DNA of 64,000 nt from Mongoliitalea daihaiensis. GTDB taxonomy: Bacteria; Bacteroidota; Bacteroidia; Cytophagales; Cyclobacteriaceae. Every line of letters begins with the position of its first letter. Position 1 is the first letter of the stretch. The stretch covers positions 1,275,592 to 1,339,591 of the forward strand of contig NZ_CP063779.1 of NCBI RefSeq assembly GCF_021596945.1. The letters are read 5' to 3'. Positions 28,279 to 44,930 of the stretch are shown piece by piece. A program made the position numbers and the translations under genes. The notes under the pieces were generated by a model. That model was given only the letters and a program-made list of their open reading frames with translations, searched no databases and was not told where the DNA came from.

Positions 28279-28304
28279 TAGGAATAGTTAAAAAAAATAA
28301 TTTG

Positions 28305-28341
28305 AATCCGCAGAAAACGCCAGCTTTCTGCGGATTTTTTT
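28305..28341 (+). terminator. Rho-independent terminator after the M14 peptidase gene. It may also serve the convergent XRE gene.
   Basis: ATCCGCAGAAA / loop / TTTCTGCGGAT (11-bp stem), followed by a T7 run. Confidence 0.7.
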
Positions 28342-28367: not shown

Positions 28368-29000
28368 TTAGCTTTTTTGCAAATCTTCTAAATTTTTAAT
28401 TCTTTTTTCCAGATTGGTTATTCGGTCTTCCAAAGGAGAATATTCTTTAAACGGGGAGTATATACCAATCACTTCGTAAATCCCCGCGTTTTCTGAGAGT
28501 GAAATAGTTTGATTATTTAAAATAATTTGTCCCTCTAATACTTTTGTTAATTTACCTATTTGAAATCCCTCTTTTGATATAGTCAAATAAACTTTTCCTA
28601 AAACCGGTACATTTGGGATACCACATACAATTTCATCTTGTTGGATATAAGCGTTTGGTGGGAGCTCATTTCCTGAAATAAATACAGTGTTATTAGGGAA
28701 TATACTTGGAAAATCCTTTGTTTCTGTGAATTGTCTAGTAGCAGATGGAAGTGACTGAGTTAGGGAAGGTAAAGTGAAGCCACTGAGTTGGTTAACAGTG
28801 ATATTGCTGGTAAGAAGTGCATCAATTGTAAGGTTGAATACTTCTGCTGTTTTCATGATTGTTTCGATTTTGGGCTCCGCCCTTCCTTCTTCATAGGAAC
28901 TAATGACGCCCCTGCTTACATCAAGCATATCTGCAAGTTGTGCTTGTGTAAGTCCACGTACATTCCTTATTTTTTTTATGTTTTTACCAAATTTTGACAT
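28368..29000 (-). CDS. XRE-family HTH transcriptional regulator with an uncharacterised roughly 140-aa C-terminal domain, divergent from the PspA/flotillin cluster
   Basis: N-terminal KNIKKIRNVRGLTQAQLADMLDVSRGVISSYEEGRAEPKIETIMKTAEVFNLTIDAL is a classic Cro/C1 HTH. The C-terminal region has no Ser-Lys peptidase motifs and ends in a heptad coiled coil (RITNLEKRIKNLEDLQK). Confidence 0.7.
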   Translation of the reverse strand: MSKFGKNIKKIRNVRGLTQAQLADMLDVSRGVISSYEEGRAEPKIETIMKTAEVFNLTIDALLTSNITVNQLSGFTLPSLTQSLPSATRQFTETKDFPSIFPNNTVFISGNELPPNAYIQQDEIVCGIPNVPVLGKVYLTISKEGFQIGKLTKVLEGQIILNNQTISLSENAGIYEVIGIYSPFKEYSPLEDRITNLEKRIKNLEDLQKS

Positions 29001-29141: not shown

Positions 29142-29534
29142 ATGATGGACAAGTATTTTAAAATTGTAAAAGATTATATTCTTGAACTTGGTTCTGTAAT
29201 TCAATATGAGAGCGAATTAGATAATTTGCTTGTCATAGAAAATGAAGATTTTGGTGTCAAGAACATGGTGATTGGTGTTGCGACACCGATCATAATTATT
29301 GAGCAATATCTCTTTAACGTCAAAGATGAAGGGGAAATATTCAAGCAGCTTTTAATTAAAAACAGAGATATTGTGCATGGTGCTTTTGTATTGGATGAAA
29401 CTGGCGAGAAGGTCATATTCAGAAATACATTGCAGGCGGAGACTTTGGACTTAAAGGAATTGGAAAGTACCATCAATTCATTAGGCTTATTGCTCTCAGA
29501 ATATTCAAATGAAATACTATCATTCTCTAAATAA
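29142..29534 (+). CDS. Small acidic cytoplasmic protein, YbjN/T3SS-chaperone-like fold candidate. First gene of the PspA-flotillin cluster.
   Basis: 130 aa. The alternating hydrophobic pattern and the motifs ..NMVIGVATPIIIIEQYLFNV.., ..GAFVLDETGEKVIFRNTL.. resemble YbjN/DUF2170-type proteins. It ends 12 bp upstream of the pspA-like gene. Confidence 0.4.
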   Translation: MMDKYFKIVKDYILELGSVIQYESELDNLLVIENEDFGVKNMVIGVATPIIIIEQYLFNVKDEGEIFKQLLIKNRDIVHGAFVLDETGEKVIFRNTLQAETLDLKELESTINSLGLLLSEYSNEILSFSK

Positions 29535-29546
29535 ATCCTTATCGTT

Positions 29547-30269
29547 ATGAACGTTTTAAAAAGATTATTCAAAATTGGACAAGCAGAAACTCATTCGGCT
29601 ATAGACAAATTAGAGGACCCAATCAAAATGATCGAACAGGGTCTGAGAGATATGCGAGAAGATCAGGATCGTGCATTGAAAGCTTTAGCTGAAGTAAAGG
29701 CCATGCATATTAAGCGGATGAGAGAGTTAAAAGATTCCATCAGTCAAGAAGAGGATTTACAGAATAAATCTGTTTTACTTTTGAAAAAAGCCCATTCTGG
29801 AGAAATGGATACAATTGAAGCAGAGGGCTTTGTCAAAGAAAACCTAAGGAGAAAATCAAAATTGAGTCAGGATATTAAGATTCAAACAGAGGATGTCAAC
29901 AATTTGGAAAAGCAGGTGGCGACCTTAGAGCAAAATGTTAACCGGATCAAAGCGGGGATTAAGCAATGGGAAAATGAGCTCGCTACCTTGAAAGCGAGAA
30001 TTAAAGTGAGCAGTGCTACGCAAAAGATAAATAAGCAGATGACCAATATGGACAGTACTAGTGTGGTATCTATGCTTGAGCGCATGAAAGACCGAGTGGT
30101 TCAGGATGAGGCATTGGCACAGGCTTACGGAGAAATGGCAGAAAGTTCTATAAGCCATGATGAGAAAGTCAAAAAAGCATTGGAAGATATATCTGTGGAA
30201 GATGAATTAGCGCGGATGAAAAAGAATTTAGGACTTTCAGGAACAGATGTCTCTGATGATAAAGTTTGA
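29547..30269 (+). CDS. pspA: PspA/IM30/Vipp1-family protein (bacterial ESCRT-III-like)
   Basis: 240 aa. The N-terminus MNVLKRLFKIGQAETHSAIDKLEDPIKMIEQGLRDMREDQ matches the PspA signature (LF.R....I...A.IDK.EDP.KM.EQ..RDM.E). The remainder is an all-alpha coiled coil. Confidence 0.8.
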   Translation: MNVLKRLFKIGQAETHSAIDKLEDPIKMIEQGLRDMREDQDRALKALAEVKAMHIKRMRELKDSISQEEDLQNKSVLLLKKAHSGEMDTIEAEGFVKENLRRKSKLSQDIKIQTEDVNNLEKQVATLEQNVNRIKAGIKQWENELATLKARIKVSSATQKINKQMTNMDSTSVVSMLERMKDRVVQDEALAQAYGEMAESSISHDEKVKKALEDISVEDELARMKKNLGLSGTDVSDDKV

Positions 30270-30337: not shown

Positions 30338-30970
30338 ATGGAAAGACTACTGGAAATCTCTTTTGCTCCGGCCAATTTTATTCTGACTGTACTGAGTCTC
30401 TTGGTGCTGCTCTACTGGCTAATTGTCATATTCACAGGATTTGATATTGACGTCGCTGATATGGATGCAGATACCGATGTTAGTAATCCAGAGGTAGGCA
30501 ACGCTGGAAGTCAAGGATTTTGGAATGCCTTTTTGGAATTCTTTTATATTGGTGAGTTGCCAGTTATGTTTATCATATCCATTGTGGTGTTTTCCATGTG
30601 GTTAATCAATGTGAATGTCACTGCAATTTTTGGGATTGCAGATAGTCTACTGGGATTGCTGATCTATATACCTGGCTTGATAGTCAGTATGCTTATAACA
30701 AAAGTAGTGGCTAGGCCATTTATAAAAATTTATGCTCAGTTCAATCATAAAGGAGAAAAGGCTATAGATTTTATAGGAAAAACCGGTAAAGTGATAGCCC
30801 CCATTGGAAAAGATAAAATCGGCCAAATCGAAATTCAACTAGAAGGAGATGTGATAAAGGTTTATGCCAAATCAATAGATGATGAATTGATTAAGTTCAA
30901 TGAGACAGTAATCATTTTGGAAGAATCACTAGACAAAAAATACTATTTAGCTCAAAAATTTCAACTCTAA
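30338..30970 (+). CDS. NfeD-like membrane protein (YqiJ/DUF1449-like): N-terminal TM helices, an Asp-rich loop and a C-terminal OB-fold
   Basis: 210 aa with at least 3 TM helices, the loop GFDIDVADMDADTDVSNPE, and a C-terminal beta-rich segment GKTGKVIAPIGKDKIGQIEIQLEGDVIKVYAKSID..ETVIILEE typical of the NfeD OB-fold. It lies immediately upstream of the flotillin gene, as in the yqiJ-yqiK and nfeD-floT pairs. Confidence 0.55.
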   Translation: MERLLEISFAPANFILTVLSLLVLLYWLIVIFTGFDIDVADMDADTDVSNPEVGNAGSQGFWNAFLEFFYIGELPVMFIISIVVFSMWLINVNVTAIFGIADSLLGLLIYIPGLIVSMLITKVVARPFIKIYAQFNHKGEKAIDFIGKTGKVIAPIGKDKIGQIEIQLEGDVIKVYAKSIDDELIKFNETVIILEESLDKKYYLAQKFQL

Positions 30971-30986
30971 AAAAACCAATAAACTT

Positions 30987-33014
30987 ATGATGGAATCTTT
31001 TTATGTCGTAGCGGGCATGAGTATAGTCGTGCTACTAGGGCTCTTTGTGTGGCTCATTTCAATGTACAAAAAAGTAAGTCAAGGTCGGGTACTCGTACGT
31101 ACCGGTCAGGGCGGTGTAAAGATCTTCTTTAATGCGGGATTAGTAGTTCCAATCCTTCACAAAGAAGAAGTCATGGATATCTCTGTTAAGAAATTGGAAA
31201 TTTCAAGAATGTCGAAAGATGGTTTGATTTGTAAGGATAATATGCGTGCAGATATTAAAGTAGCATTTTTCGTGAGGGTAAACAAGTCTGTACAAGATAT
31301 TATCAACGTTGCTCAGACCATTGGCTGTGCCCGTGCTTCTGATCATGAAACCTTGGAAAGCTTGTTTGAAGCGAAATTCTCTGAGGCCTTAAAAACAGTC
31401 GGAAAGAAGTTTGAATTCATTGAGTTGTATGAGGCACGTAGGGAGTTTAGAGATGAAATCATTGATATTATTGGTACCGATCTTAACGGATATGTTTTGG
31501 ATGACTGTGCCATAGATTATCTGGAACAGACCAAAATGGATAATCTCGATAGAGATAATATTCTTGATGCTGAGGGTATCAAAAAAATTACGGAGCTGAC
31601 CGCCGCCCAAAATATTAAAGCTAACCAAATCCGCAGGGATGAAGAAAAAATCATCAAAAAACAAGATGTAGAAGCACGGGAGGCGATTTTGGAGCTTGAA
31701 AAGCAACTCAAGGAAAAGGAAGAGTCCCAAAGAAGAGAGATAGAAACAATCAAAGCACGTGAACAGGCTGAAATCGATAAAGTAACGTCCCAAGAAAGAC
31801 TCAAATCAGAGGAAGTTCGTATCCGAACGGAGGAACAATTGGAAATCCAGGAGGAAAACAAACTAAGGCAAGTCATCATTGCTGCCAAGAATAAGGAACG
31901 GGCTGAGGCTGTGGAAACCGAACGGGTGAAAAAAGATAGAGATATTGAAGCCACCGAGCGTGAGCGAATCGTGGCATTGGCTCAGATTGAAAAGGAAAAA
32001 GCAGTAGAGATTGAGAAGAAAAATATCCAAGATGCGATCAGAGAAAGAGTAGCCATGGAAAAAACCGTGGTAGAGGAACAGGAGAAAATCAAGGATGTCG
32101 AAGCATTTAAGGGAGCTAATCGGCAAAAAGAGGTTGCTTTGATCATTGCCGCCAAAGAAGCTGAAATCAATTTGATTGAAGAAGTGAAAGCTGCTGAATC
32201 CAAGGAGAAGTCCGCTAAACACGAAGCTGCAAAAATCATTATTGAAGCCAACGCTCGCAAAGATGCTGCTGATAAGGAAGCTGAAGCCAGAAAAATTATT
32301 GCTGAGGCCAAAGCCAAAGAGGAAGCTACCATCGGTATGTCAGAGGCACAGGTGATGCATGCAAAAGCAGATGCACTTGAGCGTCAAGGAATGGTAGATG
32401 CGGTCATCATTGAAAAAGTAGCAGAAGCCAAAAGAAAAGAAGGATTGGCTGAGGCAGAAGTCATTCAGGAAAAAGCTATTGCTGAGGCCAAAGGTATTCA
32501 GGAGAAAGCAGGCGCTATGAAGCAATTGAATGATGCTGGCAAGGAGCATGAGGAGTTCAGATTGAAGCTTCAAAAGGAGAAAGAAGTGGAATTGGCACAG
32601 ATCAGTATACAGAAAGACATCGCTGATGCACAGGCAAAAGTGCTTGCCGAGGCCTTTAAAACAGCTAAAATTGATATCGTTGGCGGAGATAATACATTCT
32701 TCAATAATTTGATTAAGCAAATTTCTACCGCCCGAGGAATAGATAAGTTGGTGGAAAATTCTCAAACTATCTCCCAAGTGAAAGATTCATTAATGGGGGT
32801 TTCCGAAACAGGAGACACTCCTAATGACCTAATTGAAAAAATCAGGGGTATAGCAAATAAATACGGGGTTACTACTGAAGATCTGAAAAACATATCCATC
32901 GCAGCACTGATTACACAAATACAATTGAAAGCAAGCGAAGAAGACAAAGGATTCTTAGCCAATATGTTATCGATTGCCAAAACTATGGGCGTCGAAAACA
33001 GGAGAATATTGTAA
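30987..33014 (+). CDS. Flotillin-like SPFH/band-7 protein (YqiK/FloT-like) with a long E/A/K-rich coiled coil
   Basis: 675 aa. N-terminal TM helix, SPFH core (..VSQGRVLVRTGQGGVKIFFNAGLVVPILHKEEVMDISVKKLEI..), about 300 aa of EA-repeat coiled coil, and a C-terminal flotillin tail. Confidence 0.8.
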   Translation: MMESFYVVAGMSIVVLLGLFVWLISMYKKVSQGRVLVRTGQGGVKIFFNAGLVVPILHKEEVMDISVKKLEISRMSKDGLICKDNMRADIKVAFFVRVNKSVQDIINVAQTIGCARASDHETLESLFEAKFSEALKTVGKKFEFIELYEARREFRDEIIDIIGTDLNGYVLDDCAIDYLEQTKMDNLDRDNILDAEGIKKITELTAAQNIKANQIRRDEEKIIKKQDVEAREAILELEKQLKEKEESQRREIETIKAREQAEIDKVTSQERLKSEEVRIRTEEQLEIQEENKLRQVIIAAKNKERAEAVETERVKKDRDIEATERERIVALAQIEKEKAVEIEKKNIQDAIRERVAMEKTVVEEQEKIKDVEAFKGANRQKEVALIIAAKEAEINLIEEVKAAESKEKSAKHEAAKIIIEANARKDAADKEAEARKIIAEAKAKEEATIGMSEAQVMHAKADALERQGMVDAVIIEKVAEAKRKEGLAEAEVIQEKAIAEAKGIQEKAGAMKQLNDAGKEHEEFRLKLQKEKEVELAQISIQKDIADAQAKVLAEAFKTAKIDIVGGDNTFFNNLIKQISTARGIDKLVENSQTISQVKDSLMGVSETGDTPNDLIEKIRGIANKYGVTTEDLKNISIAALITQIQLKASEEDKGFLANMLSIAKTMGVENRRIL

Positions 33015-33177: not shown

Positions 33178-36100
33178 ATGGAAACTAACATAGAAAAAGG
33201 TACATACGACATCATTCAGGCGAGGCTTCAGCAACAGCGGTCTTCCTTGGTTGAAAACCTTCAGAAGCTCAATCAGGAAAGACAGCAGATTTTTGGAGCA
33301 GTCGAATTCAAATTACTTTCCAATGTCCGCATCAATACCCAGCATAATTGCATCGCTAGGGATATCGTGTCCATTGGAGATGCTTGTCTTTTTGGCTATA
33401 ATGTCCGCTTAGGTCTGAAAACCGTCTTGGAAGTCGGAGATGTATTCAGTGTGTATCGCTTTTCAGACCACGAATTTCATCCCATGTCATTGGAGTTGAT
33501 TCAGGATAAAAGCTTTGCTGATGAACTGCAAAACCTTTATAAGTTTTATAGACATACGCAATTTTCAAGATTTTTTGTGCAAGGGAGTTTCCTCTATATG
33601 GTGTTTCAACTATCAGACAGTCCCACTGATATCAAGGCCTTTAAATGGTTGATTGAGGAAAATAAGCTTCAATTTGTGGATTCACGCAGTGCAGCTGAGG
33701 TCAAATTCCCTTTACAGTATGAATTTGAATGGATCAGAGCAACTAGGGATATGCAAAGAACCGGTAAGAATCCACATATCTCGATAGTTGATAAGGTCTT
33801 TGTGGAAACTACCAAAGGTAATCTGACCATCAAAGTTGAAGATAATACAGATGATGGATTAGGCATTTATTCTGAAGATGTCTTGCATTCAGATCAATCT
33901 TTGGATGATGGAGAAATACACTTTTGTGATTTAGGAAATTTAGTCTTGTTAAAAATCAAACCTTATCTGGAAAGCGAACGATACTTTATTTTTAATCATC
34001 GAGTAAAGAATGTTGTGAGAGTTGATACCTTAAAGGATGCTGGTATTCTGCTGCCTGATGATCAAGGAATCCTCCTTTCCAACGGCTATTACTTACAGAC
34101 AGGAGAAAATAAAATTTTTGACAGAAAAATTGAAGGGGTGAAATTTCTGAGGAAAATTCAATCTCCCAATGGAGAGGATTATCTCTTCATTTTTTATGAG
34201 GAAAAGAACCACGATTTTGTAATCCTTTCTTACAATGTCATTGAGCAAACTGTAAAAACACCGATTTTTTGTAATGGGTATACATTGTTTACTGAAGGTG
34301 AACTTTGCTATTTCAATACTGAAAAAGAGCCTGGTAAACATCACAATATTCAAGTTTGGCAAACGCCATACACCAAAGAAATTCTACCGAATGAAGCATT
34401 CAAAAATCATGAATTATACAAAATAGGTAATCGCTCTATTGTAAAAGCGATGGCAGAAGTTCAAGAGCTGATAGTACTTCTTGCCAAAGAAGATAGTTAC
34501 AACGGGTTATACCTGGACATTGAAAAAAGGAGTCAAAGCATTTTAGATGGGTATTTTTGGTTGAGGAGCTCCCAACTTCAAGCGCTTAGCCAAGCTTTAC
34601 AGGAAACTAAAGAAATTGCACTTGCTGCTATCGGTGAGTTTGAAAAGGTATTGCAGATCAAACAGCATACACTTTCAACTTACACAAATGTAAAAGAGAA
34701 AGTTGATAAAGTACTTTTTGAAACGAGGAGTTCCAACTTTGAAAGCTTAGATCAATATGTTTCTCTTCTTTCTCAGATGAGAGGCATTCGTGGTGAAATC
34801 ATTGGTCTTAAAAACCTTCGCTACATAGATTTGGAACAAGTGGAGCTGCTTGAAGTTGGCGTAGCTAAAAGAGCGGAAGAACTTTCACAGGCTTGCGTGC
34901 AGTTTTTGCTGCAGGATAATGCTTTAGACTATTACAAAGTAAAAATGGACTTTCTGACGAATGATGTCAGCAAATTAGAGAAGGTCATTGATGCAAAATC
35001 TTTGGAAAAGTCCTTTGACCAATTGTCCAAGGAATTGGAATTATTGATTGAGATCGTTAATAATCTGAATGTGGAAGATACAGCGCATGCTACTCAAATT
35101 ATTGAGAGTATTTCACTGATTTTCGCCCAATTGAACCAGCAACGAGTAGCGCTCAATAACCGACGGAAACAGATCGGAGAGCGAGAAGCAAGGGCTGATT
35201 TTCAAGCTCAGATGACCTTGTTTGAGCAGTCAATTGTCAATTTTCTGGAATTGGCCAATGACACGGCCAAATGCGATGAATACTTGTCCAAACTTTCAAT
35301 TCAACTGGAGGAACTGGAGGGAAGATTTGTCGACTTCGATGATTTTATTGATAAAATTAGTGAGAAAAGAGAGTCTGTATATGCTGCATTTGAATCAAAA
35401 AAAGGCAACTTAACAGAAGCCAGAAACAAACGGACAAATTCTTTATTTGCATCAGCTACGAGAATTTTGAACAGTATTAAATCCAGAGCAGCAACTTTTG
35501 GAACAGAGGTGGAAATCAACGGATATTTCGCTTCGGATCTTATGATCGATAAAGTAAGGGATGTTGCATCCCAATTACAATCCTTGGGAGATTCAGCCAA
35601 ATCGGAAGATTTGCTTAATCAATTGCAAGTATTGCAGCAGGAAGCTATTCGGGCTCTAAAGGATAAAAATGAACTATTTGAGGATGGCAATCAAGTCATC
35701 AAATTGGGAGAATATCGATTTGCTGTCAATCAGCAAAAGTTAGATCTTACCATGCTTGTAAAAAATAATACATATCATTTTCATCTGACAGGTACTTCTT
35801 ATTATGAGGCTGTACATGCTCCTGAAATGGAAGAGTTAAAGGATGTTTGGGATCAGGAACTGCCTTCAGAAAATAGAACGGTGCACCGTACAGAATACCT
35901 GGCATGGCAGGTTTTTCAGAGCTTGGATAAAAATAAAGTATGGATTGATTCTGATTTAGCTAATCAAATTGCACAATATACGGCCACACATTATGGAGAA
36001 GGTTATGTGAAAGGAGTTCATGACCAAGATGCACTGTTGATTCTTCAGGCATTGCTGGAAAAAGAGCGAGACCTGGGACTTTTAAGATTTGAATCAACCA

Positions 36101-38031
36101 CACGGGCTCTAGCCCAACTTTTTTGGTATTTCCTTCCAGAAGACCAAAAAGTGTTTTTTAAAAAACAGTTTATCTTCATTAACCTAATCAAGCAGGCCTT
36201 TGCCCATACAAAAGAAATTGAGCATCTCCTGCATACCTTAAGTACTGAAATCTCACAATTTAAAAATACCTATCAATTATTTTCAGATGTAAACTCTTAT
36301 CAGGCATCCATTTACCTTTCGGAACAGCAAGCCAATGACAGTTTCATTATGGAAGCTCAAGCCAATGAATTGTTGATTGCATTCAAAAAATCACTGAAGG
36401 AAAAAAACCTTGATATAAGCTTTGCTGAAGCACAACAGGAATTGAAGGCCTTTCCTGCGGCAATTTGGCACCTTTCTAACCATTGGATCAAAACATATAT
36501 TTCCACACTTCAAGTAGAATTTCCTAGGTCTATTGTGGAGGAGGCTACTGCTTTTATTATTACAGGTGCTTATCATGGTCAGGATATTCATCATGTTTCT
36601 GGAAAAGTTAGGCTTGAGGGCTTGAAGACAGCTATCGGGTCTCAAGAAACAGATTCAGTTGTTTACGACTTTGATTATCATGATTTCCATAGACGCTTAC
36701 GGTATTTTTCTGACCAAGTTCGTCCCAGATTTCAGCAGTTACAAGAGTTGAAGCATCACTTGATTTTGGAAAAGAAAAAAGCACTCCGTTTGCATGAGTT
36801 CCAAACACAGGTATTAACGAGTTTCGTTCGAAATAAATTAATCAACCAAGTATATTTTCCATTGATTGGACAAAATTTCTCCAAACAATTAGGGGTTTCT
36901 GGGCAAGATAAACGTACCGATCGCTCTGGAATGCTGTTATTGATTTCTCCTCCTGGGTATGGAAAGACTACCTTGATGGAATATGTCGCTGATCGTTTAG
37001 GTTTGATTTTTATGAAAATCAATGGTCCATCCATAGGTCATGAAATAACATCTGTGGATCCTGCCGAGGCCAAAAATGCTGCAACTAGGCAAGAATTACA
37101 AAAACTCAATTTGGCTTTTGAGATGAGAGATAATGTGATGCTTTATTTGGATGACATTCAGCATTGCAATCCAGAGTTCTTACAGAAATTCATTTCCTTA
37201 GCAGATGGGCAACGAAAGATTGAGGGAGTTTATAACGGGGTTTCCAAAACCTATGATTTCAGAGGGAAGCGCTTCTGTATTGTAATGGCAGGTAATCCTT
37301 ATACTGAAAGTGGAGAAAAATTCCAGATTCCAGATATGTTATCCAACCGAGCGGATATCTACAATTTAGGTGATACGGCATCCAATAGAGTAGATTTGTT
37401 CAAGTTAAGTTTGATTGAAAATGGCCTTACATCCAATATGTACCTAAAGTCTATCACCCAGTATGGCTTGGAAAATTTATACAAACTAGTGGAATTCATT
37501 GAAAATGGAGAGCAGCAATTGCCAGATTTGGAGGGGAATATTACGAGTATGGAAATTCAGGATTGTATCCAAGTATTGCAAAAGACCATGAAGATAAGGG
37601 ATGTTGTCTTAAAAGTAAATGCTGCTTACATAGCATCAGCTGCCATGGCTGATGATTACCGGGAAGAACCACCATTTAAGTTACAAGGTTCTTATCGTGA
37701 TATGAATAAATTGATGGGACAAATTGTGCCTATTTTGAATGAAAAAGAGGTCACACAACTACTGCTTGATCATTATCAAAACGAGTCCCAAACCTTGACA
37801 TCAGATGCTGAGTCCAATTTGTTGAAGTTAGCAGAAATGATGAACATGCTAGATCCAATCAAAAAAGAGCGTTGGGATGCCATCAAAGCCACATTTGTAA
37901 GAAACAATAGAGTCAGAGGATTTGGTGACAATGACCGAATGTCTCAAATTATTGGTCAGATGAATTTATTTGTGGAAGGTCTAGAAGGAATCAAACAAGT
38001 CTTGGATTATCGAAATTCGAAGAAGCAGTAA
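33178..38031 (+). CDS. Giant 1617-aa protein. It has an uncharacterised roughly 1180-aa N-terminal region (mixed beta then coiled-coil/alpha) and a C-terminal MoxR/AAA_5-like AAA+ ATPase domain.
   Basis: Walker A LLLISPPGYGKTTLMEY (about nt 36950). Walker B VMLYLDDIQHCNPEFLQKF. Then ..GKRFCIVMAGNPYTESGEKFQIPDMLSNRADIYNLG, paralleling MoxR ..PFFVLATQNP..LPEAQLDRF... The single uninterrupted ORF has protein-like composition throughout. It starts 164 bp after the flotillin stop and ends before a DUF58 gene, the classic MoxR partner. Confidence 0.6.
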   Translation: METNIEKGTYDIIQARLQQQRSSLVENLQKLNQERQQIFGAVEFKLLSNVRINTQHNCIARDIVSIGDACLFGYNVRLGLKTVLEVGDVFSVYRFSDHEFHPMSLELIQDKSFADELQNLYKFYRHTQFSRFFVQGSFLYMVFQLSDSPTDIKAFKWLIEENKLQFVDSRSAAEVKFPLQYEFEWIRATRDMQRTGKNPHISIVDKVFVETTKGNLTIKVEDNTDDGLGIYSEDVLHSDQSLDDGEIHFCDLGNLVLLKIKPYLESERYFIFNHRVKNVVRVDTLKDAGILLPDDQGILLSNGYYLQTGENKIFDRKIEGVKFLRKIQSPNGEDYLFIFYEEKNHDFVILSYNVIEQTVKTPIFCNGYTLFTEGELCYFNTEKEPGKHHNIQVWQTPYTKEILPNEAFKNHELYKIGNRSIVKAMAEVQELIVLLAKEDSYNGLYLDIEKRSQSILDGYFWLRSSQLQALSQALQETKEIALAAIGEFEKVLQIKQHTLSTYTNVKEKVDKVLFETRSSNFESLDQYVSLLSQMRGIRGEIIGLKNLRYIDLEQVELLEVGVAKRAEELSQACVQFLLQDNALDYYKVKMDFLTNDVSKLEKVIDAKSLEKSFDQLSKELELLIEIVNNLNVEDTAHATQIIESISLIFAQLNQQRVALNNRRKQIGEREARADFQAQMTLFEQSIVNFLELANDTAKCDEYLSKLSIQLEELEGRFVDFDDFIDKISEKRESVYAAFESKKGNLTEARNKRTNSLFASATRILNSIKSRAATFGTEVEINGYFASDLMIDKVRDVASQLQSLGDSAKSEDLLNQLQVLQQEAIRALKDKNELFEDGNQVIKLGEYRFAVNQQKLDLTMLVKNNTYHFHLTGTSYYEAVHAPEMEELKDVWDQELPSENRTVHRTEYLAWQVFQSLDKNKVWIDSDLANQIAQYTATHYGEGYVKGVHDQDALLILQALLEKERDLGLLRFESTTRALAQLFWYFLPEDQKVFFKKQFIFINLIKQAFAHTKEIEHLLHTLSTEISQFKNTYQLFSDVNSYQASIYLSEQQANDSFIMEAQANELLIAFKKSLKEKNLDISFAEAQQELKAFPAAIWHLSNHWIKTYISTLQVEFPRSIVEEATAFIITGAYHGQDIHHVSGKVRLEGLKTAIGSQETDSVVYDFDYHDFHRRLRYFSDQVRPRFQQLQELKHHLILEKKKALRLHEFQTQVLTSFVRNKLINQVYFPLIGQNFSKQLGVSGQDKRTDRSGMLLLISPPGYGKTTLMEYVADRLGLIFMKINGPSIGHEITSVDPAEAKNAATRQELQKLNLAFEMRDNVMLYLDDIQHCNPEFLQKFISLADGQRKIEGVYNGVSKTYDFRGKRFCIVMAGNPYTESGEKFQIPDMLSNRADIYNLGDTASNRVDLFKLSLIENGLTSNMYLKSITQYGLENLYKLVEFIENGEQQLPDLEGNITSMEIQDCIQVLQKTMKIRDVVLKVNAAYIASAAMADDYREEPPFKLQGSYRDMNKLMGQIVPILNEKEVTQLLLDHYQNESQTLTSDAESNLLKLAEMMNMLDPIKKERWDAIKATFVRNNRVRGFGDNDRMSQIIGQMNLFVEGLEGIKQVLDYRNSKKQ

Positions 38032-38090: not shown

Positions 38091-38468
38091 CTACCCCCTC
38101 TGCCCATAATAATTGTAATCCTTGATGATATGCTCAATAAAAGCTAAGTTTTTTTCCTCAGGGTTTAGCTGCAGCAGGGAGGCAGTTTTCTCGGCTAATT
38201 GTTTGATGAGCAAGAAATCCCCTGATTTTAGGGCTTCACTTTTGATCTGCTTGATTTGTTGATCGCTGAGGTTCATTACCTGTGGGTATTTGGGAACATA
38301 GTCTTCGGGAATTTCTTGTAATAAAGTTTCATGCAGGCCAATCCTGAATTTTTCTGATACTACAGTCGTCCCTGCGGCTACATCACCTACCCGCTGTCCC
38401 TTTCCGGTAATCAAAATAGTGATAATGGCCACCCCACCACTGGTCAATGAAATATCTACAAAGCGCAT
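38091..38468 (-). CDS. Small protein with a single TM helix and an RDD-family C-terminal-like motif at its N-terminus. Possibly a truncated RDD-domain remnant fused to a roughly 85-aa soluble domain.
   Basis: GGVAIITILITGKGQRVGDVAAGTTVV matches the conserved RDD C-terminal segment (G.RLGD..AGT.VV), but only about 10 residues precede it and an in-frame stop lies 14 codons upstream. Its start is 12 bp from the divergent ORF. Confidence 0.35.
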   Translation of the reverse strand: MRFVDISLTSGGVAIITILITGKGQRVGDVAAGTTVVSEKFRIGLHETLLQEIPEDYVPKYPQVMNLSDQQIKQIKSEALKSGDFLLIKQLAEKTASLLQLNPEEKNLAFIEHIIKDYNYYGQRG

Positions 38469-38480
38469 CAGCTGACTCCC

Positions 38481-39426
38481 TTGGAGAGAGGGGAGTATTA
38501 TTTTGGGGATTTACATGTATTTGTTCAAAGTAAGCTTGGTTTAGCCAAGCGAAGGTTGAGTTTCCAGCGGGGGCAATTGGTCAAGGTGTATCCTTCCTTT
38601 ATTCAAATGCAGCAGTATGATTTTTTGGCAACCAATACTCGAAGGATGGCACAAGAGCTAAAAAAAAATCAGGAGAATTGGCCACACCTTGGAGTTTGAG
38701 CAAATTAAGGAGTATACGGTGGGGGACGATGTGCGATCGATTAATTGGAAAGCCACTGCCAAAGCTGCTGATTTGATGGTCAATCAATTTCAAGATGAAA
38801 AGTCCCAGCACATCTATTCCATTTTGGACATGGGTAGGGTCATGCAGATGCCATTTGAAGGTTTGAGTCTCTTGGATTATGCAATCAATAGTTGTCTAGC
38901 ATTTTCCAATATTGCCATCAAAAAGGGAGATAAAGCTGGAGTAGTCACTTTTTCTCATGTTATCCATAAATCGCCAGCAGCGAGTAATCGGAAAACCCAT
39001 TTGTTGGGTATTTTGGAAATGCTCTATGGTCTAAAGACGGATTATTTGGATACGGATTTTGGGCTATTGTATACTTGGTTGAAGCGAAAAGTTAATCAGA
39101 GAAGTATGGTCATGCTTTTTACCAATTTCGAATATCATTCGGCATTGGAGCGTCAATTACCTTATTTACAGGCTATTGCCAAGCAACACTTACTAGTCGT
39201 TGTAATGTTTGAGAACACGCTGCTTGAATCTGTCGCTGAAAGCCAATCGGAGCGTCTTTCGGATGTGTTCAACCAAACCATTGCGGGGAAATTTATTTAT
39301 GATAAAAGATGGATGGCCAAGGAGCTCAACCGTCATGGAATCCAAACTATCCTTACCAAACCGAAGAAATTGAGCATTCATACCATCAACAAATACTTGG
39401 AGTTAAAGGCTAGGGGCTTGATTTAG
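38481..39426 (+). pseudogene. DUF58-family (vWA-like, MoxR-associated) gene split into two ORFs (38481-38699 and 38689-39426) by a frameshift in an A9 homopolymer. This is either a genuine pseudogene or phase-variable gene, or a sequencing error.
   Basis: The downstream ORF begins exactly at the DUF58 signature EFEQIKEYTVGDDVRSINWKATAK (consensus EF..REY.PGDDLRRIDWKA.AR) with no room for the usual roughly 60-aa N-terminus. Removing one A from the A9 run (38660-38668) fuses the upstream ORF in frame, giving ..ELKKIRRIGHTLEFEQIKEY.., which matches the ..HRSRRRG.SLEF.. consensus. The fused product is about 310 aa, typical for DUF58. Confidence 0.55.
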
Positions 39427-39469: not shown

Positions 39470-40765
39470 TCAATTCATCCTTCCCAACAACTGAATTCTG
39501 TGAGAGTCTAGTTTGATGAAAATAAACAGTAAAATCGTAAAGGACCACAGAGAAGACCCTCCATAGCTAAAGAATGGCAAAGGAATTCCAACTACGGGGA
39601 ATAAACCAATCGTCATTGAGATATTGATCATCACATGAAAAAGCAAGATGGAAACCACACAATATCCATAGATTCTGGAGAATCTATTTTTCTGGCGTTC
39701 GGCTAGGTATATTAATCGAATAAGTAAAGTACAGAAAAGAATGATGACCACTGTACTTCCAACCCATCCAAACTCCTCGCCCAAGGTGCAAAAGATAAAG
39801 TCAGTATGCTGTTCGGGCACGAAGTCAAACTTGGTTTGGGTTCCCTCCAGGTAGCCTTTGCCCCAAAATCCACCAGAACCGATGGCAATTTTCGATTGAG
39901 TAACATTCCAACCAACTCCCAAAGGGTCCAAATCGGGGTTGAATAGGACCATGATTCGGTTTTGCTGATGTTCTGGCAATTTGGAGACCACATAGTCTAA
40001 GCTGTATATGTAAACTACCGCGAGTACGCCGATACCAAGCAGTGTTAAAATTCTTCCAAGCCTTTTTTTACCCATCAAGATCAGAAGCCCAATTACAGCG
40101 AAAACTCCAATTACCAAATACAAATTATTTTCTATCCCTAAAGCCAGCAAAGAAACCGCAACAAGGGCCAATCCTAAAGCATAATAATATTGAGGCATGC
40201 CCTCTCTATAAAGCATGATAAAAAATGCAAAATACACCATGGCAGTTCCCGTATCGGGCTGAAGCATGATCAAAATCACAGGTATCATGATGATGATTAC
40301 TGCCTGAAATTGGTGTTTGATCTGAGAGAGATCAAAACTTGGCCTTTCCATGTACTTAGCAAGAGCCAAAGCTGTAGTAAATTTTGCAAACTCAGAGGGT
40401 TGGATCCTAAAAGAGCCAACACCAATGGAAAGAATTTGCCCATTGACTTCTTTTCCAATAAATGGAGTAATGATCAATAAAACCAAAAATACAATGTATA
40501 GAATCCATGCAAGGTTATCAAAGACTCTGTAATCTGCCACCATGATCAGAAGAATAATGATAAATGCGGCTCCAATACGAATAAGCTGTTGTCCAGAATT
40601 GATAGATAAGTCAAAAATACTCTTAGGAAATTGCTCATCATAGACCGCTGCATAGATATTGAACCAGCCAAAAATAACAAGGCACACGTATATGCCAACT
40701 GTTAGCCAATCGATCTTATTTAAATATAATTCATCCTTATTTCTCACCTTACATAAATTTTCCAA
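39470..40765 (-). CDS. rodA: Rod-shape-determining protein RodA (SEDS-family peptidoglycan polymerase)
   Basis: 431 aa with 10 TM helices. FtsW/RodA/SpoVE family motifs are present (..LGEEFGWVGS.., ..GGSSLWS..). It is the last gene of the mreBCD-mrdA-rodA operon, and its start overlaps the mrdA stop by 17 nt. Confidence 0.82.
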   Translation of the reverse strand: MENLCKVRNKDELYLNKIDWLTVGIYVCLVIFGWFNIYAAVYDEQFPKSIFDLSINSGQQLIRIGAAFIIILLIMVADYRVFDNLAWILYIVFLVLLIITPFIGKEVNGQILSIGVGSFRIQPSEFAKFTTALALAKYMERPSFDLSQIKHQFQAVIIIMIPVILIMLQPDTGTAMVYFAFFIMLYREGMPQYYYALGLALVAVSLLALGIENNLYLVIGVFAVIGLLILMGKKRLGRILTLLGIGVLAVVYIYSLDYVVSKLPEHQQNRIMVLFNPDLDPLGVGWNVTQSKIAIGSGGFWGKGYLEGTQTKFDFVPEQHTDFIFCTLGEEFGWVGSTVVIILFCTLLIRLIYLAERQKNRFSRIYGYCVVSILLFHVMINISMTIGLFPVVGIPLPFFSYGGSSLWSFTILLFIFIKLDSHRIQLLGRMN

Positions 40766-42548
40766 TCAGCACATATTCTTCCAATGCTTCTCGGGTAATA
40801 TAGCCGCGGATGTATTTTTCAATCATCAAACTTGCTGTACTTGCAGCTGCACGACCACCCCAACCAGCATTTTCTACATATACTGCAATCGCTATTTTCG
40901 GATCTTCTTTGGGGGCAAATGCCACGAAAACAGAGTGATCCTCTCCTTGTGGATTTTGGGCAGTTCCTGTTTTACCAGCTACTGCAATATCTTTGATGGC
41001 GGCTCTGGCTGCTGTCCCATAGATAGCCTCTGCCATCGCATCTTGGACCATATCAAAATGATGGGCGTCCACGCCCACATCGATTTTTGTGCGGTACTTG
41101 ATGTCGATTTTTTTCGGATCTCCATCGATCGCTTTGATCAAGTGAGGAGTGTAATAGTATCCCTTATTTGCAAAAACCGCCGCTAAGTTTGCCATCTGAA
41201 GTGGTGTGACAAGCATTTCTCCCTGACCTATGGAAAGGGAATAAATGGTAGAGTACTTCCAACGGTTGGGTCCATACACTCGGTCGTATAGTTTACTGGA
41301 AGGAATATCTCCACCTTTTTCATTGTATAAATCAATACCCAGTGGACCACCAAGACCAAATTTCAATACTTTTTCTCTCCATTCATTCAAGCCAATTTCT
41401 GTGTCCTTAAAGGTGTTTTTAGAAACTTCCCGGTTGATCATCATGCGGTAGGCTTGATGATAATATGGATTACAGGAATATTTGATAGCCCCAAATAGAT
41501 TGACTGGGTTGGGATGATTATGACATGCCACTAAGGATCTGTTACAGGAAAGCGTAGTATTTGGAGTCAATACTCCCATTTGTAAACCTATCAGTGATTG
41601 TACAACTTTGAAGATGGATCCCGGAGGATACATAGCCATGATGGGTCTGTTAAACAACGGCTTACTTTCATCCCGGTTGAGCAACATATAATTTGCACCA
41701 AATTTGGCACCTGTCAAGACATTGGGATCATAAGTAGGAGCTGATATCATAGCAAGGATTTCTCCTGTCTTTGGCTCAATAGCCACCACCGAGCCTCTTT
41801 TGCCGGCCATGAGTAGTTCTCCATATTCTTGAAGAGCAAGATCAATTGTCGAGGTAATGTTATTGCCTGCTACTGAAGCCGTGTCATATTCTCCAGACTT
41901 GAAAGGACCCTTATCCACCCCGCGGACGTTAACCATTTTATATTTGACACCTTTGACACCTCGAAGGGTTTTTTCATAAAACCCTTCAATTCCACTGAGG
42001 CCCACATAATCACCTTGTCTGTAATAGCGCACGGTGTCACGCTCAAGCTGTGTGGCAGAGATTTCACCTATGTACCCCAAAGCGTTGGCAGCAGATGGCT
42101 GAGGGTAGGATCTCACCGATCGAGTCATTACAAATAGGCCCGGATAATCAATCAAGTAATCCTGAATTCGTGCAAAATCCGTCGTTGAAATCTGCTTGAC
42201 AAGGGGAGAGGGCTTGACAGAGGAGTATTTTCTTGCTGCAGTATAGTTTTCGATCAGTTGCTCTTTGCTGATTTGAAAAATCTCACAGAAGCGTGTAGTA
42301 TCTTTTACATTAAATTCCCGAGGAATTACCATCAGATCAAAAATGGGATTATTATATACCATAATTTTCCCTGTTCGATCATACACCAACCCCCTGTACG
42401 GATGGTCTACCACTCGTTGAATAGCATTCCGTTCAGCTCTTTTCAAAAAGCTGTCATCCATGACTTGTATTGAAAACAGTCTTATTACGATTATCAACCC
42501 CACCAATACGACGACGATGCTGAGGATGATAGGTCTCTGATCATTCAT
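40749..42548 (-). CDS. mrdA: Penicillin-binding protein 2 (elongasome class B transpeptidase)
   Basis: 599 aa. N-terminal TM anchor and dimerisation domain. Transpeptidase motifs SxxK (..PGSIFKVV..), SxN and KTG (..AGKTGTAQ..). Confidence 0.88.
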   Translation of the reverse strand: MNDQRPIILSIVVVLVGLIIVIRLFSIQVMDDSFLKRAERNAIQRVVDHPYRGLVYDRTGKIMVYNNPIFDLMVIPREFNVKDTTRFCEIFQISKEQLIENYTAARKYSSVKPSPLVKQISTTDFARIQDYLIDYPGLFVMTRSVRSYPQPSAANALGYIGEISATQLERDTVRYYRQGDYVGLSGIEGFYEKTLRGVKGVKYKMVNVRGVDKGPFKSGEYDTASVAGNNITSTIDLALQEYGELLMAGKRGSVVAIEPKTGEILAMISAPTYDPNVLTGAKFGANYMLLNRDESKPLFNRPIMAMYPPGSIFKVVQSLIGLQMGVLTPNTTLSCNRSLVACHNHPNPVNLFGAIKYSCNPYYHQAYRMMINREVSKNTFKDTEIGLNEWREKVLKFGLGGPLGIDLYNEKGGDIPSSKLYDRVYGPNRWKYSTIYSLSIGQGEMLVTPLQMANLAAVFANKGYYYTPHLIKAIDGDPKKIDIKYRTKIDVGVDAHHFDMVQDAMAEAIYGTAARAAIKDIAVAGKTGTAQNPQGEDHSVFVAFAPKEDPKIAIAVYVENAGWGGRAAASTASLMIEKYIRGYITREALEEYVLIGKFM

Positions 42549-43069
42549 TAAACACCCCTTCTTCTCCTGTAGAATAACAGTTGAACAATTATACTGATTA
42601 TAAATACAAAAATAGCACTAGAAGCTGTTTTTTGAATAACTGGGATAAACAAATCTGTGCCCCAGCTTTCAATTGAAAAGAAAATGAAATGATGAATAAA
42701 AAACAGGGGTAGACTATATGTTAAAAACCAGCCAAAACCCATGTTTAAGAAGGTAGGTTGTAAGTCTTCATCATAACCTCCAGTAGGTGTAAGTAATTTG
42801 ATCCACTGCTCTCGTATAAATCCGATTACCAACAAGCTTGCTGTGTGAATACCCATGGTATCGTAAAAAATGTCCACGCTGATACCCAATACAAAGGAAA
42901 TGAGTAACATGGTGACAATCTTCATTTCTAAGGGCAATAAAAGCAGGTAAAGAACATATAAAAAACAAAAAATCATTCCAAAGATGACCATGTTTTTTAA
43001 AAGTAGTACCTGTACTATTAAGTAGATAAAGAAACCCAAGATTAGGTAAAAAATTTTTTGACTATTCAT
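42548..43069 (-). CDS. mreD: Rod-shape-determining protein MreD
   Basis: 173 aa polytopic membrane protein between mreC and mrdA. The stop/start overlaps (42548 and 43062-43069) indicate translational coupling. Confidence 0.6.
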   Translation of the reverse strand: MNSQKIFYLILGFFIYLIVQVLLLKNMVIFGMIFCFLYVLYLLLLPLEMKIVTMLLISFVLGISVDIFYDTMGIHTASLLVIGFIREQWIKLLTPTGGYDEDLQPTFLNMGFGWFLTYSLPLFFIHHFIFFSIESWGTDLFIPVIQKTASSAIFVFIISIIVQLLFYRRRRGV

Positions 43070-43895
43070 CTAGGATATCGCTTGATTTATACAACTCTTC
43101 CAATTCTTCTTCTCGATTGTTTTCTACTAGATACACATAGGATACCCTAGTAAAATCAGTAGAAAGTTCGAGGGTGATATCCAAATAATTAGTCTCTTTG
43201 CCAGGACTTACATCGATGACTTTCCCAATAGAAATGCCCTCTGGGAAAACGGCATTATATCCTGAAGTAACAATTTCATCACCAACAGCAATGTTGACAT
43301 GTCTCGGTACATAAAGCATTTTGGCACGCTTAGGGTCTTTGGCGTCCCATTTGGTCGAACCAAATACTTCGGAAGACTTTACTTTGGATGAAACCAACAA
43401 CTCTGTGTGTAGCAATGAAATAACTGAAGCAAAATTTTTGGTTACCGCCCTCACTCTTCCTACGACGCCTTCTTCATTAAACACCCCCATGCCTTCTTTG
43501 ATTCCATGGTTTGATCCACGGTTAATAGTGAGGTAGTTTTGACTGTGATGAATTGAATTGTTAATGATTTTGGCACCTTTAAATTGGAAGCTAGCACTGA
43601 GTACGCTATCTAATTCGATGTATACAGAATCAGCAGGTTTTTTAAACTTTTCTAATTCTGCGAGCAAATTTGCATTCTTGTCTACGAGGGCTTTGTTAAC
43701 CGAAGCCAATGAGAAGTAATCCAACACATTTGCCTGCGTATTCAGTATATTTCCTGTAATTTGATTGGCACTGTTGAACACAGCGGAGCCTTGCTGAGAG
43801 TTATTGGAAACAATCAGAAAAACAGCAATAGCCTCCAATGCTATAAATAGCAAGAAGGCTCGGATTCGATATAGAAATAAGAATATCCGCTGCAT
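43062..43895 (-). CDS. mreC: Rod-shape-determining protein MreC
   Basis: 277 aa. N-terminal TM helix, coiled coil (..LVDKNANLLAELEKFKK..) and tandem beta-domains (..GVVGRVRAVTKNFASVISL.., ..GDEIVTSGYNAVFPEGISIGKV..). Confidence 0.78.
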   Translation of the reverse strand: MQRIFLFLYRIRAFLLFIALEAIAVFLIVSNNSQQGSAVFNSANQITGNILNTQANVLDYFSLASVNKALVDKNANLLAELEKFKKPADSVYIELDSVLSASFQFKGAKIINNSIHHSQNYLTINRGSNHGIKEGMGVFNEEGVVGRVRAVTKNFASVISLLHTELLVSSKVKSSEVFGSTKWDAKDPKRAKMLYVPRHVNIAVGDEIVTSGYNAVFPEGISIGKVIDVSPGKETNYLDITLELSTDFTRVSYVYLVENNREEELEELYKSSDILDE

Positions 43896-43901
43896 TCTTC
43901 A

Positions 43902-44930
43902 TCAAGTCATCAAAACTGTTTTAAAGTTATAGATATTTTTTAAGGCAGTTCCTGTGCCCCTCACCACTGCTCTCAGTGGATCTTCAGCGATATGGATCGG
44001 CAATTTTGTTTTTTGATGTAATCGTTTGTCTAGACCCTTCAAAAGTGCGCCACCACCAGTCAGGTGGATTCCATTATCATAAATATCAGCTGATAACTCT
44101 GGAGGTGCAATTTCTAGAGCTTTCAATACAGCTTCTTCTATTTTGGACACAGACTTATCGAGTGCAAAGGCGATTTCGGAGTATGATACCTTAATTACTT
44201 TAGGGATACCTGTCATCAAATCACGTCCCCTGATTTCATAGTCTTCAGGGGCATCGTCCAATTCCGTTAGTGCAGAACCGATAGCGATTTTGACTTTTTC
44301 GGCAGAGCGCTCTCCAATTAAGAGGTTGTGTTGTCTACGCATGTAATCTAATATGTCCTTGGTGAAGGTATCTCCAGCTACTCGTATGGATTGATCAGCG
44401 ACGATACCTGAAAGTGCAATCAAGGCAATTTCAGTCGTACCCCCACCAATATCAACGATCATGGATCCCATCGGCTTCTCAATATCGATACCAATACCTA
44501 TTGCCGCAGCAATCGGTTCATAGATCATGTACACTTCTTTTGCACCGGCATGCTCGGCAGAATCCCGAACAGCTCTCTTTTCAACTTCTGTAATTCCTGA
44601 AGGTATACAGATAACCATGCGATGAGATTTTGGAAACATGCCTTTGTTATGACCAGGAATCATTTTGATCATTCCTCTGATCATTTGTTCGGCAGCGTAG
44701 AAGTCAGCAATCACTCCATCTTTCAATGGACGGATAGTTTTGATGTTTTCATGCGTTTTCTCGTGCATGTTCATCGCATCTCTTCCAACAGCCAGAACCC
44801 GATTGGTGGATCGGTCGATGGCAATGATGGAAGGCTCGTCTACAACTATTTTGTCTTTATGTATAATCAACGTATTGGCTGTACCTAAATCTATGGCTAT
44901 GTCGCTTGAAAAAAAGTCAAATAAACCCAT
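43902..44930 (-). CDS. mreB: Actin-like rod-shape protein MreB
   Basis: 342 aa. Actin-fold motifs: N-terminal ..IAIDLGTANTLI.., then ..MIVDIGGGTTEIALI.. and ..GIHLTGGGALLKGLDKRL... Confidence 0.93.
   Translation of the reverse strand: MGLFDFFSSDIAIDLGTANTLIIHKDKIVVDEPSIIAIDRSTNRVLAVGRDAMNMHEKTHENIKTIRPLKDGVIADFYAAEQMIRGMIKMIPGHNKGMFPKSHRMVICIPSGITEVEKRAVRDSAEHAGAKEVYMIYEPIAAAIGIGIDIEKPMGSMIVDIGGGTTEIALIALSGIVADQSIRVAGDTFTKDILDYMRRQHNLLIGERSAEKVKIAIGSALTELDDAPEDYEIRGRDLMTGIPKVIKVSYSEIAFALDKSVSKIEEAVLKALEIAPPELSADIYDNGIHLTGGGALLKGLDKRLHQKTKLPIHIAEDPLRAVVRGTGTALKNIYNFKTVLMT

Follow-up and report, generated by a model that had tools for sequence, protein, structure and literature searches.

A widespread DUF3686-DUF7902-AAA+ protein encoded beside flotillin in Mongoliitalea daihaiensis: a candidate ATPase of flotillin/PspA scaffolds

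The window considered here is a stretch of 64,000 nucleotides (nt) from the genome of Mongoliitalea daihaiensis (Bacteroidota), and coordinates below are counted from its first letter unless another locus or record is named. Its open reading frame (ORF) 33178..38031, on the forward strand and with an ATG start, codes for a protein of 1617 amino acids (aa) that is 100% identical to the NCBI entry of this species named "DNA repair ATPase" (P0001). Judged by its sequence, the protein is a typical member of a family that combines DUF3686, DUF7902 and a C-terminal AAA+ module and whose genes lie next to those of membrane-stress proteins, above all flotillin. The gene and the parts of its product are the following.

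33178..38031 (+): gene for the 1617-aa DUF3686-DUF7902-AAA+ protein (ORF check, NCBI identity, Pfam)
33247..34557 (+): DUF3686 region, aa 24-460, with an N-terminal helix and a predicted beta-rich, propeller-like domain, strands at aa 45-395 (Pfam, AlphaFold2)
34411..35670 (+): predicted long-helix region, aa 412-831, helices of up to 58 residues, holding DUF7902 at aa 581-665, nt 34918-35172 (AlphaFold2)
35695..36567 (+): predicted small beta unit, aa 840-878, then a second helical domain, aa 904-1130 (AlphaFold2)
36790..37377 (+): AAA+ core, aa 1205-1400 (motifs, AlphaFold2)
37378..38028 (+): predicted lid and C-terminal helical domain, aa 1401-1617 (AlphaFold2 helices)

A first interpretation made from the DNA letters alone (the sequence-only reading) had described an orphan giant protein with no recognisable domain in front of its ATPase. 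The latter claim is refuted by two Pfam families: DUF3686 (PF12458), matched at aa 24-460 over profile positions 2-448 of 448 and scoring 604 bits (cut-off 25; E=1.8e-181), and DUF7902 (PF25472), matched in the helical middle at aa 581-665 with 81.5 bits against a cut-off of 26 (E=5e-23); weak Pfam matches to AAA, AAA_5, AAA_22 and RuvB_N follow around aa 1239-1378. The layout that it had proposed, a beta-rich N-terminus leading through long helices to a single C-terminal AAA+ module, is by contrast borne out by two AlphaFold2 models from a 46-sequence alignment, one of aa 1-1190 (mean predicted local distance difference test, pLDDT, 81.5) and one of aa 1090-1617 (mean pLDDT 74.7). These models place a helix at aa 7-39, about 28 strands at aa 45-395, the long helices at aa 412-831 and the beta unit at aa 840-878, followed by the helical domain of aa 904-1130, a poorly conserved linker, the AAA+ core at about aa 1205-1400, and the lid with the C-terminal helices. 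Conservation drops to 0.21-0.36 across aa 1001-1200, the variable linker, and highest in the AAA+ core (0.66-0.85 identity), which argues for a working rather than a dead nucleotide site. The N-terminal ~1200 residues stand as a conserved, family-specific recognition or scaffold region, as had been suspected, and not as a chimera of common domains. No transmembrane segment was found in the protein, the highest 19-residue Kyte-Doolittle mean being 1.08, and it is predicted to be soluble and cytoplasmic; nor did a Pfam scan of it match any DNA-binding, nuclease, effector or MIT-like domain.

The fold of the N-terminal domain is less clear-cut. Foldseek relates it to beta-propeller proteins at E 1e-5 to 1e-3, among them the Vps18 propeller, CyRPA, Ski8, YncE, PON1 and prolyl oligopeptidase, yet with a TM-score of only about 0.3 and a large root-mean-square deviation, so that the label "propeller-like" is loosely supported and would denote a non-canonical, irregular propeller. 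Long alignments to proteins that join a propeller to a solenoid (IFT-A, Elp1, nucleoporins) were also obtained, and the predicted propeller plus helical arm distantly echoes the layout of eukaryotic membrane-coat proteins, such as IFT-A, Vps18 and nucleoporins; we regard this likeness to coat-protein architecture as a lead.

The protein is no orphan. Searches with it return at least 3597 homologues at E<=1e-5, the best 120 of which are 1598-1625 aa long, align at 99-100% coverage and carry the same Pfam set, and a search from a Planctomycetota relative returns at least 4369 matches of 1669-1899 aa. To call it a five-fold N-terminal extension of a MoxR protein is therefore misleading, since the family is a large one whose members vary little in length. 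When the C-terminal module was compared with a library of representatives at 50% identity, 348 clusters were matched at E<=1e-30, those of full length measuring 1504-2036 aa. In a scan of one genome per species, relatives occur in at least 564 species genomes; the best 80 loci, to which the neighbourhood analysis below is confined, are covered nearly in full (mostly aa ~5-1609, a few being cut off by contig ends), mostly at 43-54% identity and at 67% in the closest case. These loci belong to Bacteroidota, Planctomycetota, Verrucomicrobiota, Kiritimatiellota, Desulfobacterota, Omnitrophota and one Clostridiaceae genome. Plasmid records, searched by tblastn, contribute further relatives in Proteus, Pseudomonas, Halomonas, Vibrio, Photobacterium, Streptomyces, Nonomuraea and Deinococcus, including megaplasmid copies; 12 of the 13 matches span 97-100% of the query and extend the full-length family to Gammaproteobacteria, Actinomycetota and Deinococcota. 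In all, full-length relatives of 1600-2000 aa span about ten phyla. Five motifs mark the family (PPGYGKTT, Y(L/V/I)DD(I/V)QH, AGNPYTE, PDMLxNR and LQGSYR), and all five are present in the 1617-aa protein.

Some relatives are longer at the C-terminus. A 1906-aa homologue from Desulfobacterales (L058, 7962..13682) ends in ankyrin repeats at aa ~1792-1887, and those of Planctomycetota (e.g. L033, 7905..13544) carry some 200-280 extra residues with no Pfam match. Two entries call for care: a eukaryotic one (P0354, eukprot g33011.t1), 65% identical to a Planctomycetota homologue, looks like contamination, and so does P0088, attributed to Ralstonia mannitolilytica (UNVERIFIED_CONTAM), for which the source itself flags contamination and which is 53% identical to the query, as are Chryseobacterium homologues listed nearby.

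Immediately upstream of the ATPase gene lie four genes on the same strand, preceded by a divergent regulator.

28368..29000 (-): divergent HTH_3 (XRE/Cro-type) regulator (Pfam HTH_3, E=1e-14, aa 7-60)
29142..29534 (+): CesT/Tir-like chaperone (CesT_Tir_1, E=2e-51)
29547..30269 (+): PspA/IM30, ESCRT-III superfamily (PspA_IM30, E=6.7e-40)
30338..30970 (+): YqiJ/YuaF (NfeD-like) protein of 210 aa with multiple transmembrane segments (weak matches: YqiJ_N, E=0.024; NfeD, E=0.2)
30987..33014 (+): flotillin-type SPFH protein of 675 aa with an N-terminal transmembrane segment, Band_7 and a long coiled coil (Band_7, E=2.2e-12)

The Band_7 match of the flotillin arises only when aa 1-250 are scanned alone, the scan of the whole protein giving no Pfam match, probably because its long, charged coiled coil triggers the bias filter of HMMER; other coiled-coil-rich proteins may call for similar caution in automated annotation. 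The weakly matched YqiJ-like protein has a homologue in L058 that reaches YqiJ_N with E=1.2e-4.

How constant is this arrangement? Six-frame ORFs of the 80 loci were searched with iterated profiles of the upstream neighbours, a locus counting as informative when its upstream sequence reached 3.2 kb or more (65 loci). In 62 of these 65 a same-strand flotillin gene directly precedes the ATPase gene, at a median gap of ~125 nt, and in 60 the YqiJ-like gene likewise lies upstream in that orientation. PspA is upstream in half of the informative loci (32/64), the CesT/Tir gene occurs in 31 related loci, and a homologue of the divergent HTH gene in matching position and orientation in 33, all three in Bacteroidota only. 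All-against-all clustering of the neighbours in the 80 loci revealed no further conserved family, and none downstream. The spacer between flotillin and ATPase genes seems to be an insertion hot spot: in ten loci (L005, L007, L016, L022, L031, L038, L044, L047, L063, L071) it holds an unrelated single gene, for example for a DUF559 endonuclease-like protein, an AbiEii toxin, a beta-lactamase, an esterase, DMP19 or an M54 peptidase, a heterogeneous and non-conserved assortment.

The operon has been described before (Ravi et al., mSystems 2024, PMC11237479) as CesT/Tir-PspA together with a YqiJ/YuaF transmembrane protein, a flotillin and an AAA+ protein, the architecture of the last being given as "Betapropeller+Coiled-coil+AAA-ATPase". 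The supplementary table of that paper lists, for Dokdonia donghaensis ANH61663.1, the order <-cHTH, CesT_Tir->, PspA->, YqiJ-YuaF->, Band-7+coiled-coil+flotillin->, propeller+coiled-coil+AAA->, and its text notes that a shortened flotillin/YqiJ/AAA+ version is more widely distributed (PMC11237479). The 80 loci and the plasmid records reproduce this wider spread of the short version. The triad of YqiJ-like, SPFH and ATPase genes is thus annotated on the Pseudomonas fluorescens SBW25 plasmid pQBR103 (L081, record 85112..97641), and a Streptomyces plasmid carries genes for a hypothetical protein, flotillin and the ATPase in that order. On pQBR103 the triad ends a longer same-strand run of PspA, rhomboid, DUF2491, DUF350, DUF1190 and glutathionylspermidine synthase genes, i.e. 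PspA with a polyamine module, so that this plasmid joins two PspA operon types that stand apart in the published operon listing (PMC11237479). The divergent regulator appears there under the label "cHTH+Protease" (PMC11237479); in the window its C-terminal domain of ~140 aa has no Pfam match and, by eye, no Ser-Lys motif of the LexA/S24 type.

The ATPase module itself is marked by the motifs below, whose roles were assigned from their position in the AlphaFold2 model and the standard AAA+ order.

36943-36972 (+): Walker A, ISPPGYGKTT, aa 1256-1265 (motif)
37024-37062 (+): beta2-alpha2 loop GPSIGHEITSVDP, with no aromatic residue (motif position)
37135-37164 (+): Walker B, VMLYLDDIQH, aa 1320-1329 (motif)
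37216-37257 (+): predicted pre-sensor-1 beta-hairpin, aa 1347-1360 (AlphaFold2)
37288-37308 (+): sensor-1, AGNPYTE, aa 1371-1377 (motif, AlphaFold2)
37330-37353 (+): presumed Arg-finger, PDMLSNRA, aa 1385-1392 (motif position)
37681-37698 (+): LQGSYR, candidate sensor 2, aa 1502-1507 (analogy to GxxR motifs)

The C-terminal module is genuinely AAA+, as the sequence-only reading had it. That reading had also pointed to a Walker B motif with two aspartates (D-D) in place of the usual Asp-Glu (D-E), and this holds not as a one-off but throughout the family: among 458 family sequences carrying PPGxGKT, over which all motif counts were taken, Y(L/V/I)DD(I/V)QH is present in all 437 with a detectable Walker B, and no D-E variant occurs. 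AGNPYTE is found in 414 of the 458, PDMLxNR(A/S) in ~450 and LQGSYR, which by analogy is a candidate for sensor 2, in 436. The stretch IVMAGNPY..IPDMLSNRADIY, which had been taken for a helix-2-insert/sensor region, does hold the sensor-1 Asn, but the helix-2 insert is not there; by model position and motif order, the stretch is strand beta4 with that Asn followed by the presumed Arg-finger segment. At the pore-loop position, GPSIGHEITSVDP has no aromatic residue in the query and the family variants have no Trp or Phe, one common variant, PSLGYDIVSTDP, having a Tyr. A precedent for the D-D motif exists in DnaA, whose chains in the PDB (8bv3, 8btg, 2hcb, 1l8q, 2z4r) read LLIDDIQF or LLLDDVQF, D-D-I-Q thus being common to DnaA and the 1617-aa protein. 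DnaA is a nucleotide switch that hydrolyses ATP slowly and upon stimulation by a partner. Given this precedent, the earlier suggestion that the D-D Walker B might mean slow or regulated hydrolysis is, by analogy, reasonable.

To which AAA+ clade does the module belong? The sequence-only reading called it MoxR/dynein-like, which would make the protein a clade 7 chaperone with a bespoke N-terminal recognition region that matures, or inserts cofactors into, a client with the help of VWA or DUF58 partners. AAA_5 is indeed matched with 29-30 bits (2-127 of the 139 profile positions), the model predicts a pre-sensor-1 hairpin whose two strands, aa 1347-1352 and aa 1355-1360, fall between alpha3 and beta4, several homologues bear the JGI label "MoxR-like ATPase", and a DUF58 gene lies ~650 bp downstream of the ATPase gene:

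38689..39426 (+): DUF58 ORF, 245 aa, TTG start (DUF58, E=3.5e-18; weak VWA_2)

DUF58 proteins are typical partners of MoxR ATPases. No homologue of this ORF, however, turned up in the 80 related loci, whose conserved partners are flotillin and the YqiJ-like protein rather than VWA proteins, and the presence of the ORF beside the giant ATPase appears to be coincidental; its N-terminus looks short, and no MoxR gene is adjacent to it. The MoxR profile AAA_3 (PF07726) gives no match for aa 1151-1617 even at E<=5 and is missing from the precomputed Pfam lists of all 240 homologues listed. The AAA_5 match is non-diagnostic, since a control, the classical AAA protein FtsH of locus L007, gives a comparable cross-match of 23 bits (positions 3-125) besides its 159 bits to PF00004 (positions 2-130). 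The pre-sensor-1 hairpin is common to AAA+ clades 4-7 and hence not specific to MoxR, while the helix-2 insert is lacking from the model: instead of a hairpin, a loop and a short helix make up its beta2-alpha2 segment (aa 1283-1300), at a pLDDT of 81-86. Searches of the PDB by sequence and profile, too, return only classical AAA proteins (p97, Rix7, VAT) and RuvB. Membership of the MoxR family thus fails on some of these points and stays open on others, and a chaperone of this type is in our judgement unlikely.

The classical AAA clade was likewise considered and rejected: a full-length match to PF00004 that includes the second region of homology is not obtained, the 29.5-31.7 bits covering only profile positions 1-73 of 131, the pore loop is not of the aromatic-hydrophobic kind, and the model predicts a pre-sensor-1 hairpin, a feature that classical AAA proteins do not have. 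The PDB matches to classical proteins align only the segment NKLINQVYFPLIG...PPGYGKTT...INGP, at E of about 1e-3 to 1e-4, and the segment from Walker B to the Arg-finger, searched alone, finds nothing. LQGSYR lies ~110 residues past beta5, a spacing that leaves room for a pre-sensor-2 insert. The comparison figures for the AAA+ module run from 10.5-9.8 for Hsp101, CLPB, nucleotide-binding domain 2 (NBD2) of ClpB and ClpA through NorQ (9.5), RFC5 (9.3), CbbQ (9.2), McrB (8.8) and p97 (8.7) to Lon and Vps4 (8.6). Our reading of the model is that the module would be a divergent member of the pre-sensor-1-hairpin superclade, with a topology that resembles the HCLR type more than MoxR.

What, then, of the name "DNA repair ATPase"? 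It implies an enzyme like SMC or Rad50 that acts on DNA through long coiled coils, and besides the NCBI, UniRef and Pfam names one could cite the long helices of the model, the weak RuvB_N matches around Walker A and a recO gene ~10 kb upstream. The ATPase, however, is an AAA+ module and not an ABC/SMC head, the RuvB models of NCBIfam reach 17-19 bits against cut-offs of 282-299, and DNA-binding and nuclease domains are missing from the Pfam scan. The conserved neighbours are membrane-stress proteins only, no nuclease or repair gene being among them, and a literature search gave no paper that backs the name. A role in DNA repair is accordingly extremely improbable; the name has no support, being inherited and contradicted by the genomic context.

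The constancy of the flotillin linkage points elsewhere. We hold it reasonably probable that the family is a flotillin/PspA-scaffold ATPase in the general sense, with less confidence in any specific step. In the mechanism that we propose, the flotillin/NfeD assembly on the cytoplasmic side, and perhaps PspA polymers too, would be bound by the propeller-like domain together with the long helical arm, the C-terminal AAA+ module would oligomerise, and slow or partner-stimulated ATP turnover would assemble, reposition or dismantle the scaffold during envelope stress. Such remodelling would proceed by a switch- or clamp-like action without substrate threading: the invariant D-D Walker B, a beta2-alpha2 (pore-loop) segment devoid of aromatic residues and the hairpin predicted before sensor-1 suit a switch- or clamp-like remodeller better than a threading unfoldase. 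Precedents make a scaffold-remodelling mechanism plausible: the SPFH cage HflK/C is coupled to the AAA+ protease FtsH (PMC13220708), and Vps4 serves ESCRT-III. SPFH genes are, moreover, described as typically paired with NfeD genes (PMC13086221).

A narrower version would make the ATPase a Vps4-like disassemblase that threads PspA (ESCRT-III) polymers specifically. PspA does share the operon here and in half of the informative loci, the best alignments of the N-terminal portion of the AAA+ domain are with the classical Rix7, p97 and VAT, and ESCRT-like roles have been proposed for these systems (Ravi et al., PMC11237479). Against it, PspA is missing outside Bacteroidota among the 80 loci whereas flotillin is near-universal, the pore loop GPSIGHEITSVDP offers no aromatic residue, Walker B is D-D and not D-E, the predicted hairpin is one that the classical clade lacks, and Pfam finds no MIT-like domain. 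We consider threading of this kind unlikely.

Several points also weigh against the broader proposal of a scaffold ATPase. Gene linkage is no proof of physical interaction, and three loci (L046, L059, L060) have no detectable flotillin despite at least 7.6 kb of upstream sequence. The restriction of PspA linkage to Bacteroidota among the 80 loci means that PspA is not a universal partner. The hexameric, non-threading mode is inferred from motifs and from a model of mean pLDDT 74.7, and Foldseek finds no structure that convincingly resembles the N-terminal beta domain. Finally, a literature search for DUF3686, PF12458 or "DNA repair ATPase" with flotillin returned no paper, and with it no experimental data on the family.

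Could the locus instead serve phage defence or another conflict, the propeller sensing infection and flotillin or PspA giving a membrane-level response? The large ATPase-plus-propeller architecture, the ankyrin repeats at the C-terminus in one lineage, the AbiEii and DUF559 genes between flotillin and ATPase in some loci and the megaplasmid copies would all fit. PADLOC-DB 2.0, however, has no match for the ATPase, flotillin, YqiJ-like and CesT proteins, its only matches being a generic coiled-coil one to PspA, a generic HTH one to the regulator and a weak Csm4 one to a small ORF described below. Pfam finds no effector domain, the genes in the spacer are heterogeneous and not conserved, no relatives occur in 2.9 million viral contigs, and full-length identities of 43-54% across phyla are unlike those of fast-evolving defence genes. 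The locus, moreover, is set among core housekeeping genes (mreB-mreC-PBP2-rodA, rho, recO, tdk), of which the cell-shape cluster lies immediately downstream:

39470..44930 (-): cell-shape cluster, with mreB at 43902..44930 and mreC at 43062..43895
remainder of the cluster (-): a 173-aa ORF in the mreD position at 42548..43069, PBP2 at 40749..42548 and rodA at 39470..40765

A defence function is, on balance, very unlikely, and a scaffold ATPase remains the interpretation that we favour.

Three other features of the window may be recorded. A strong, bidirectional, terminator-like hairpin at 28304..28337, with a stem of 13-14 bp and T-runs on both strands, lies between the gene of a 908-aa M14 carboxypeptidase (25552..28278) and the HTH gene and delimits the PspA/flotillin locus on its upstream side. 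An ORF of 125 aa (38091..38468, minus strand), convergent with the ATPase gene, has no Pfam match and is not conserved in the related loci; the PADLOC match to Csm4 just mentioned (E=8e-4) belongs to it and is weak and probably spurious. Farther upstream, 17489..20479 (minus strand) encodes a 995-aa protein with a DUF11 repeat and a Por_Secre_tail sorting domain, a probable cargo of type IX secretion.

As a locus, this one is ordinary and already known: NCBI lists the exact protein, Pfam covers its domains, and a description of the operon dates from 2024. More notable is the family, with ~1600 aa conserved end to end in about ten phyla and a gene that nearly always lies directly after flotillin, all under a misleading database name. 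Do bacteria possess a Vps4-like partner for PspA/ESCRT-III, and how are flotillin assemblies built up and turned over? A review states, on the first question, that bacteria appear to have no such partner (PMC7619361). The family is an obvious candidate for both, and its invariant D-D Walker B offers a clean mutational handle. It is tempting, if doubtful at present, to see in it the missing energy source for the dynamics of flotillin and ESCRT-III (PspA) scaffolds in bacteria. On that view, an AAA+ module of non-classical, switch-like type with a D-D Walker B, set on a beta-propeller and alpha-helical arm, would act as a functional analogue of Vps4 or NSF.

Set beside known systems, the protein compares as follows. 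With Hsp100/ClpB NBD2 and other HCLR structures (6e10, 7xbk, 4lj4, 1ksf) the sequence identity of the AAA+ module is only 12-16%, and the 1617-aa protein differs from them in having a single ATPase module, a D-D Walker B and no aromatic pore loop, Clp N-domain or M-domain. Members of the MoxR family (NorQ, 9qh4; CbbQ, 6l1q) have ~300 aa rather than 1617 and work with VWA/DUF58 proteins rather than with flotillin and a YqiJ-like protein. Their Walker B is the D-E of DEINR, in contrast to the D-D found here. With HflK/C-FtsH the common element is the pairing of an SPFH scaffold with an AAA+ machine, but FtsH is a membrane-anchored classical AAA protease (159 bits to PF00004), whereas the present protein is predicted to be soluble, has no protease domain and reaches ~30 bits. 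With Vps4-ESCRT-III it shares the encoding of an AAA+ protein alongside one of the ESCRT-III superfamily, here PspA; unlike Vps4, it is non-classical, has no MIT domain and is linked primarily to flotillin rather than to PspA. The closest counterpart is the operon of Ravi et al., which the window matches in gene order, orientation and divergent cHTH gene with no operon difference from the published listing (PMC11237479). To the operon description and table of that paper the present analysis adds that the D-D Walker B is invariant, that the model predicts a pre-sensor-1 hairpin but not a helix-2 insert, that the pore loop has no aromatic residue, that some lineages have C-terminal extensions of their own, ankyrin repeats included, and that the "propeller" appears to be irregular.

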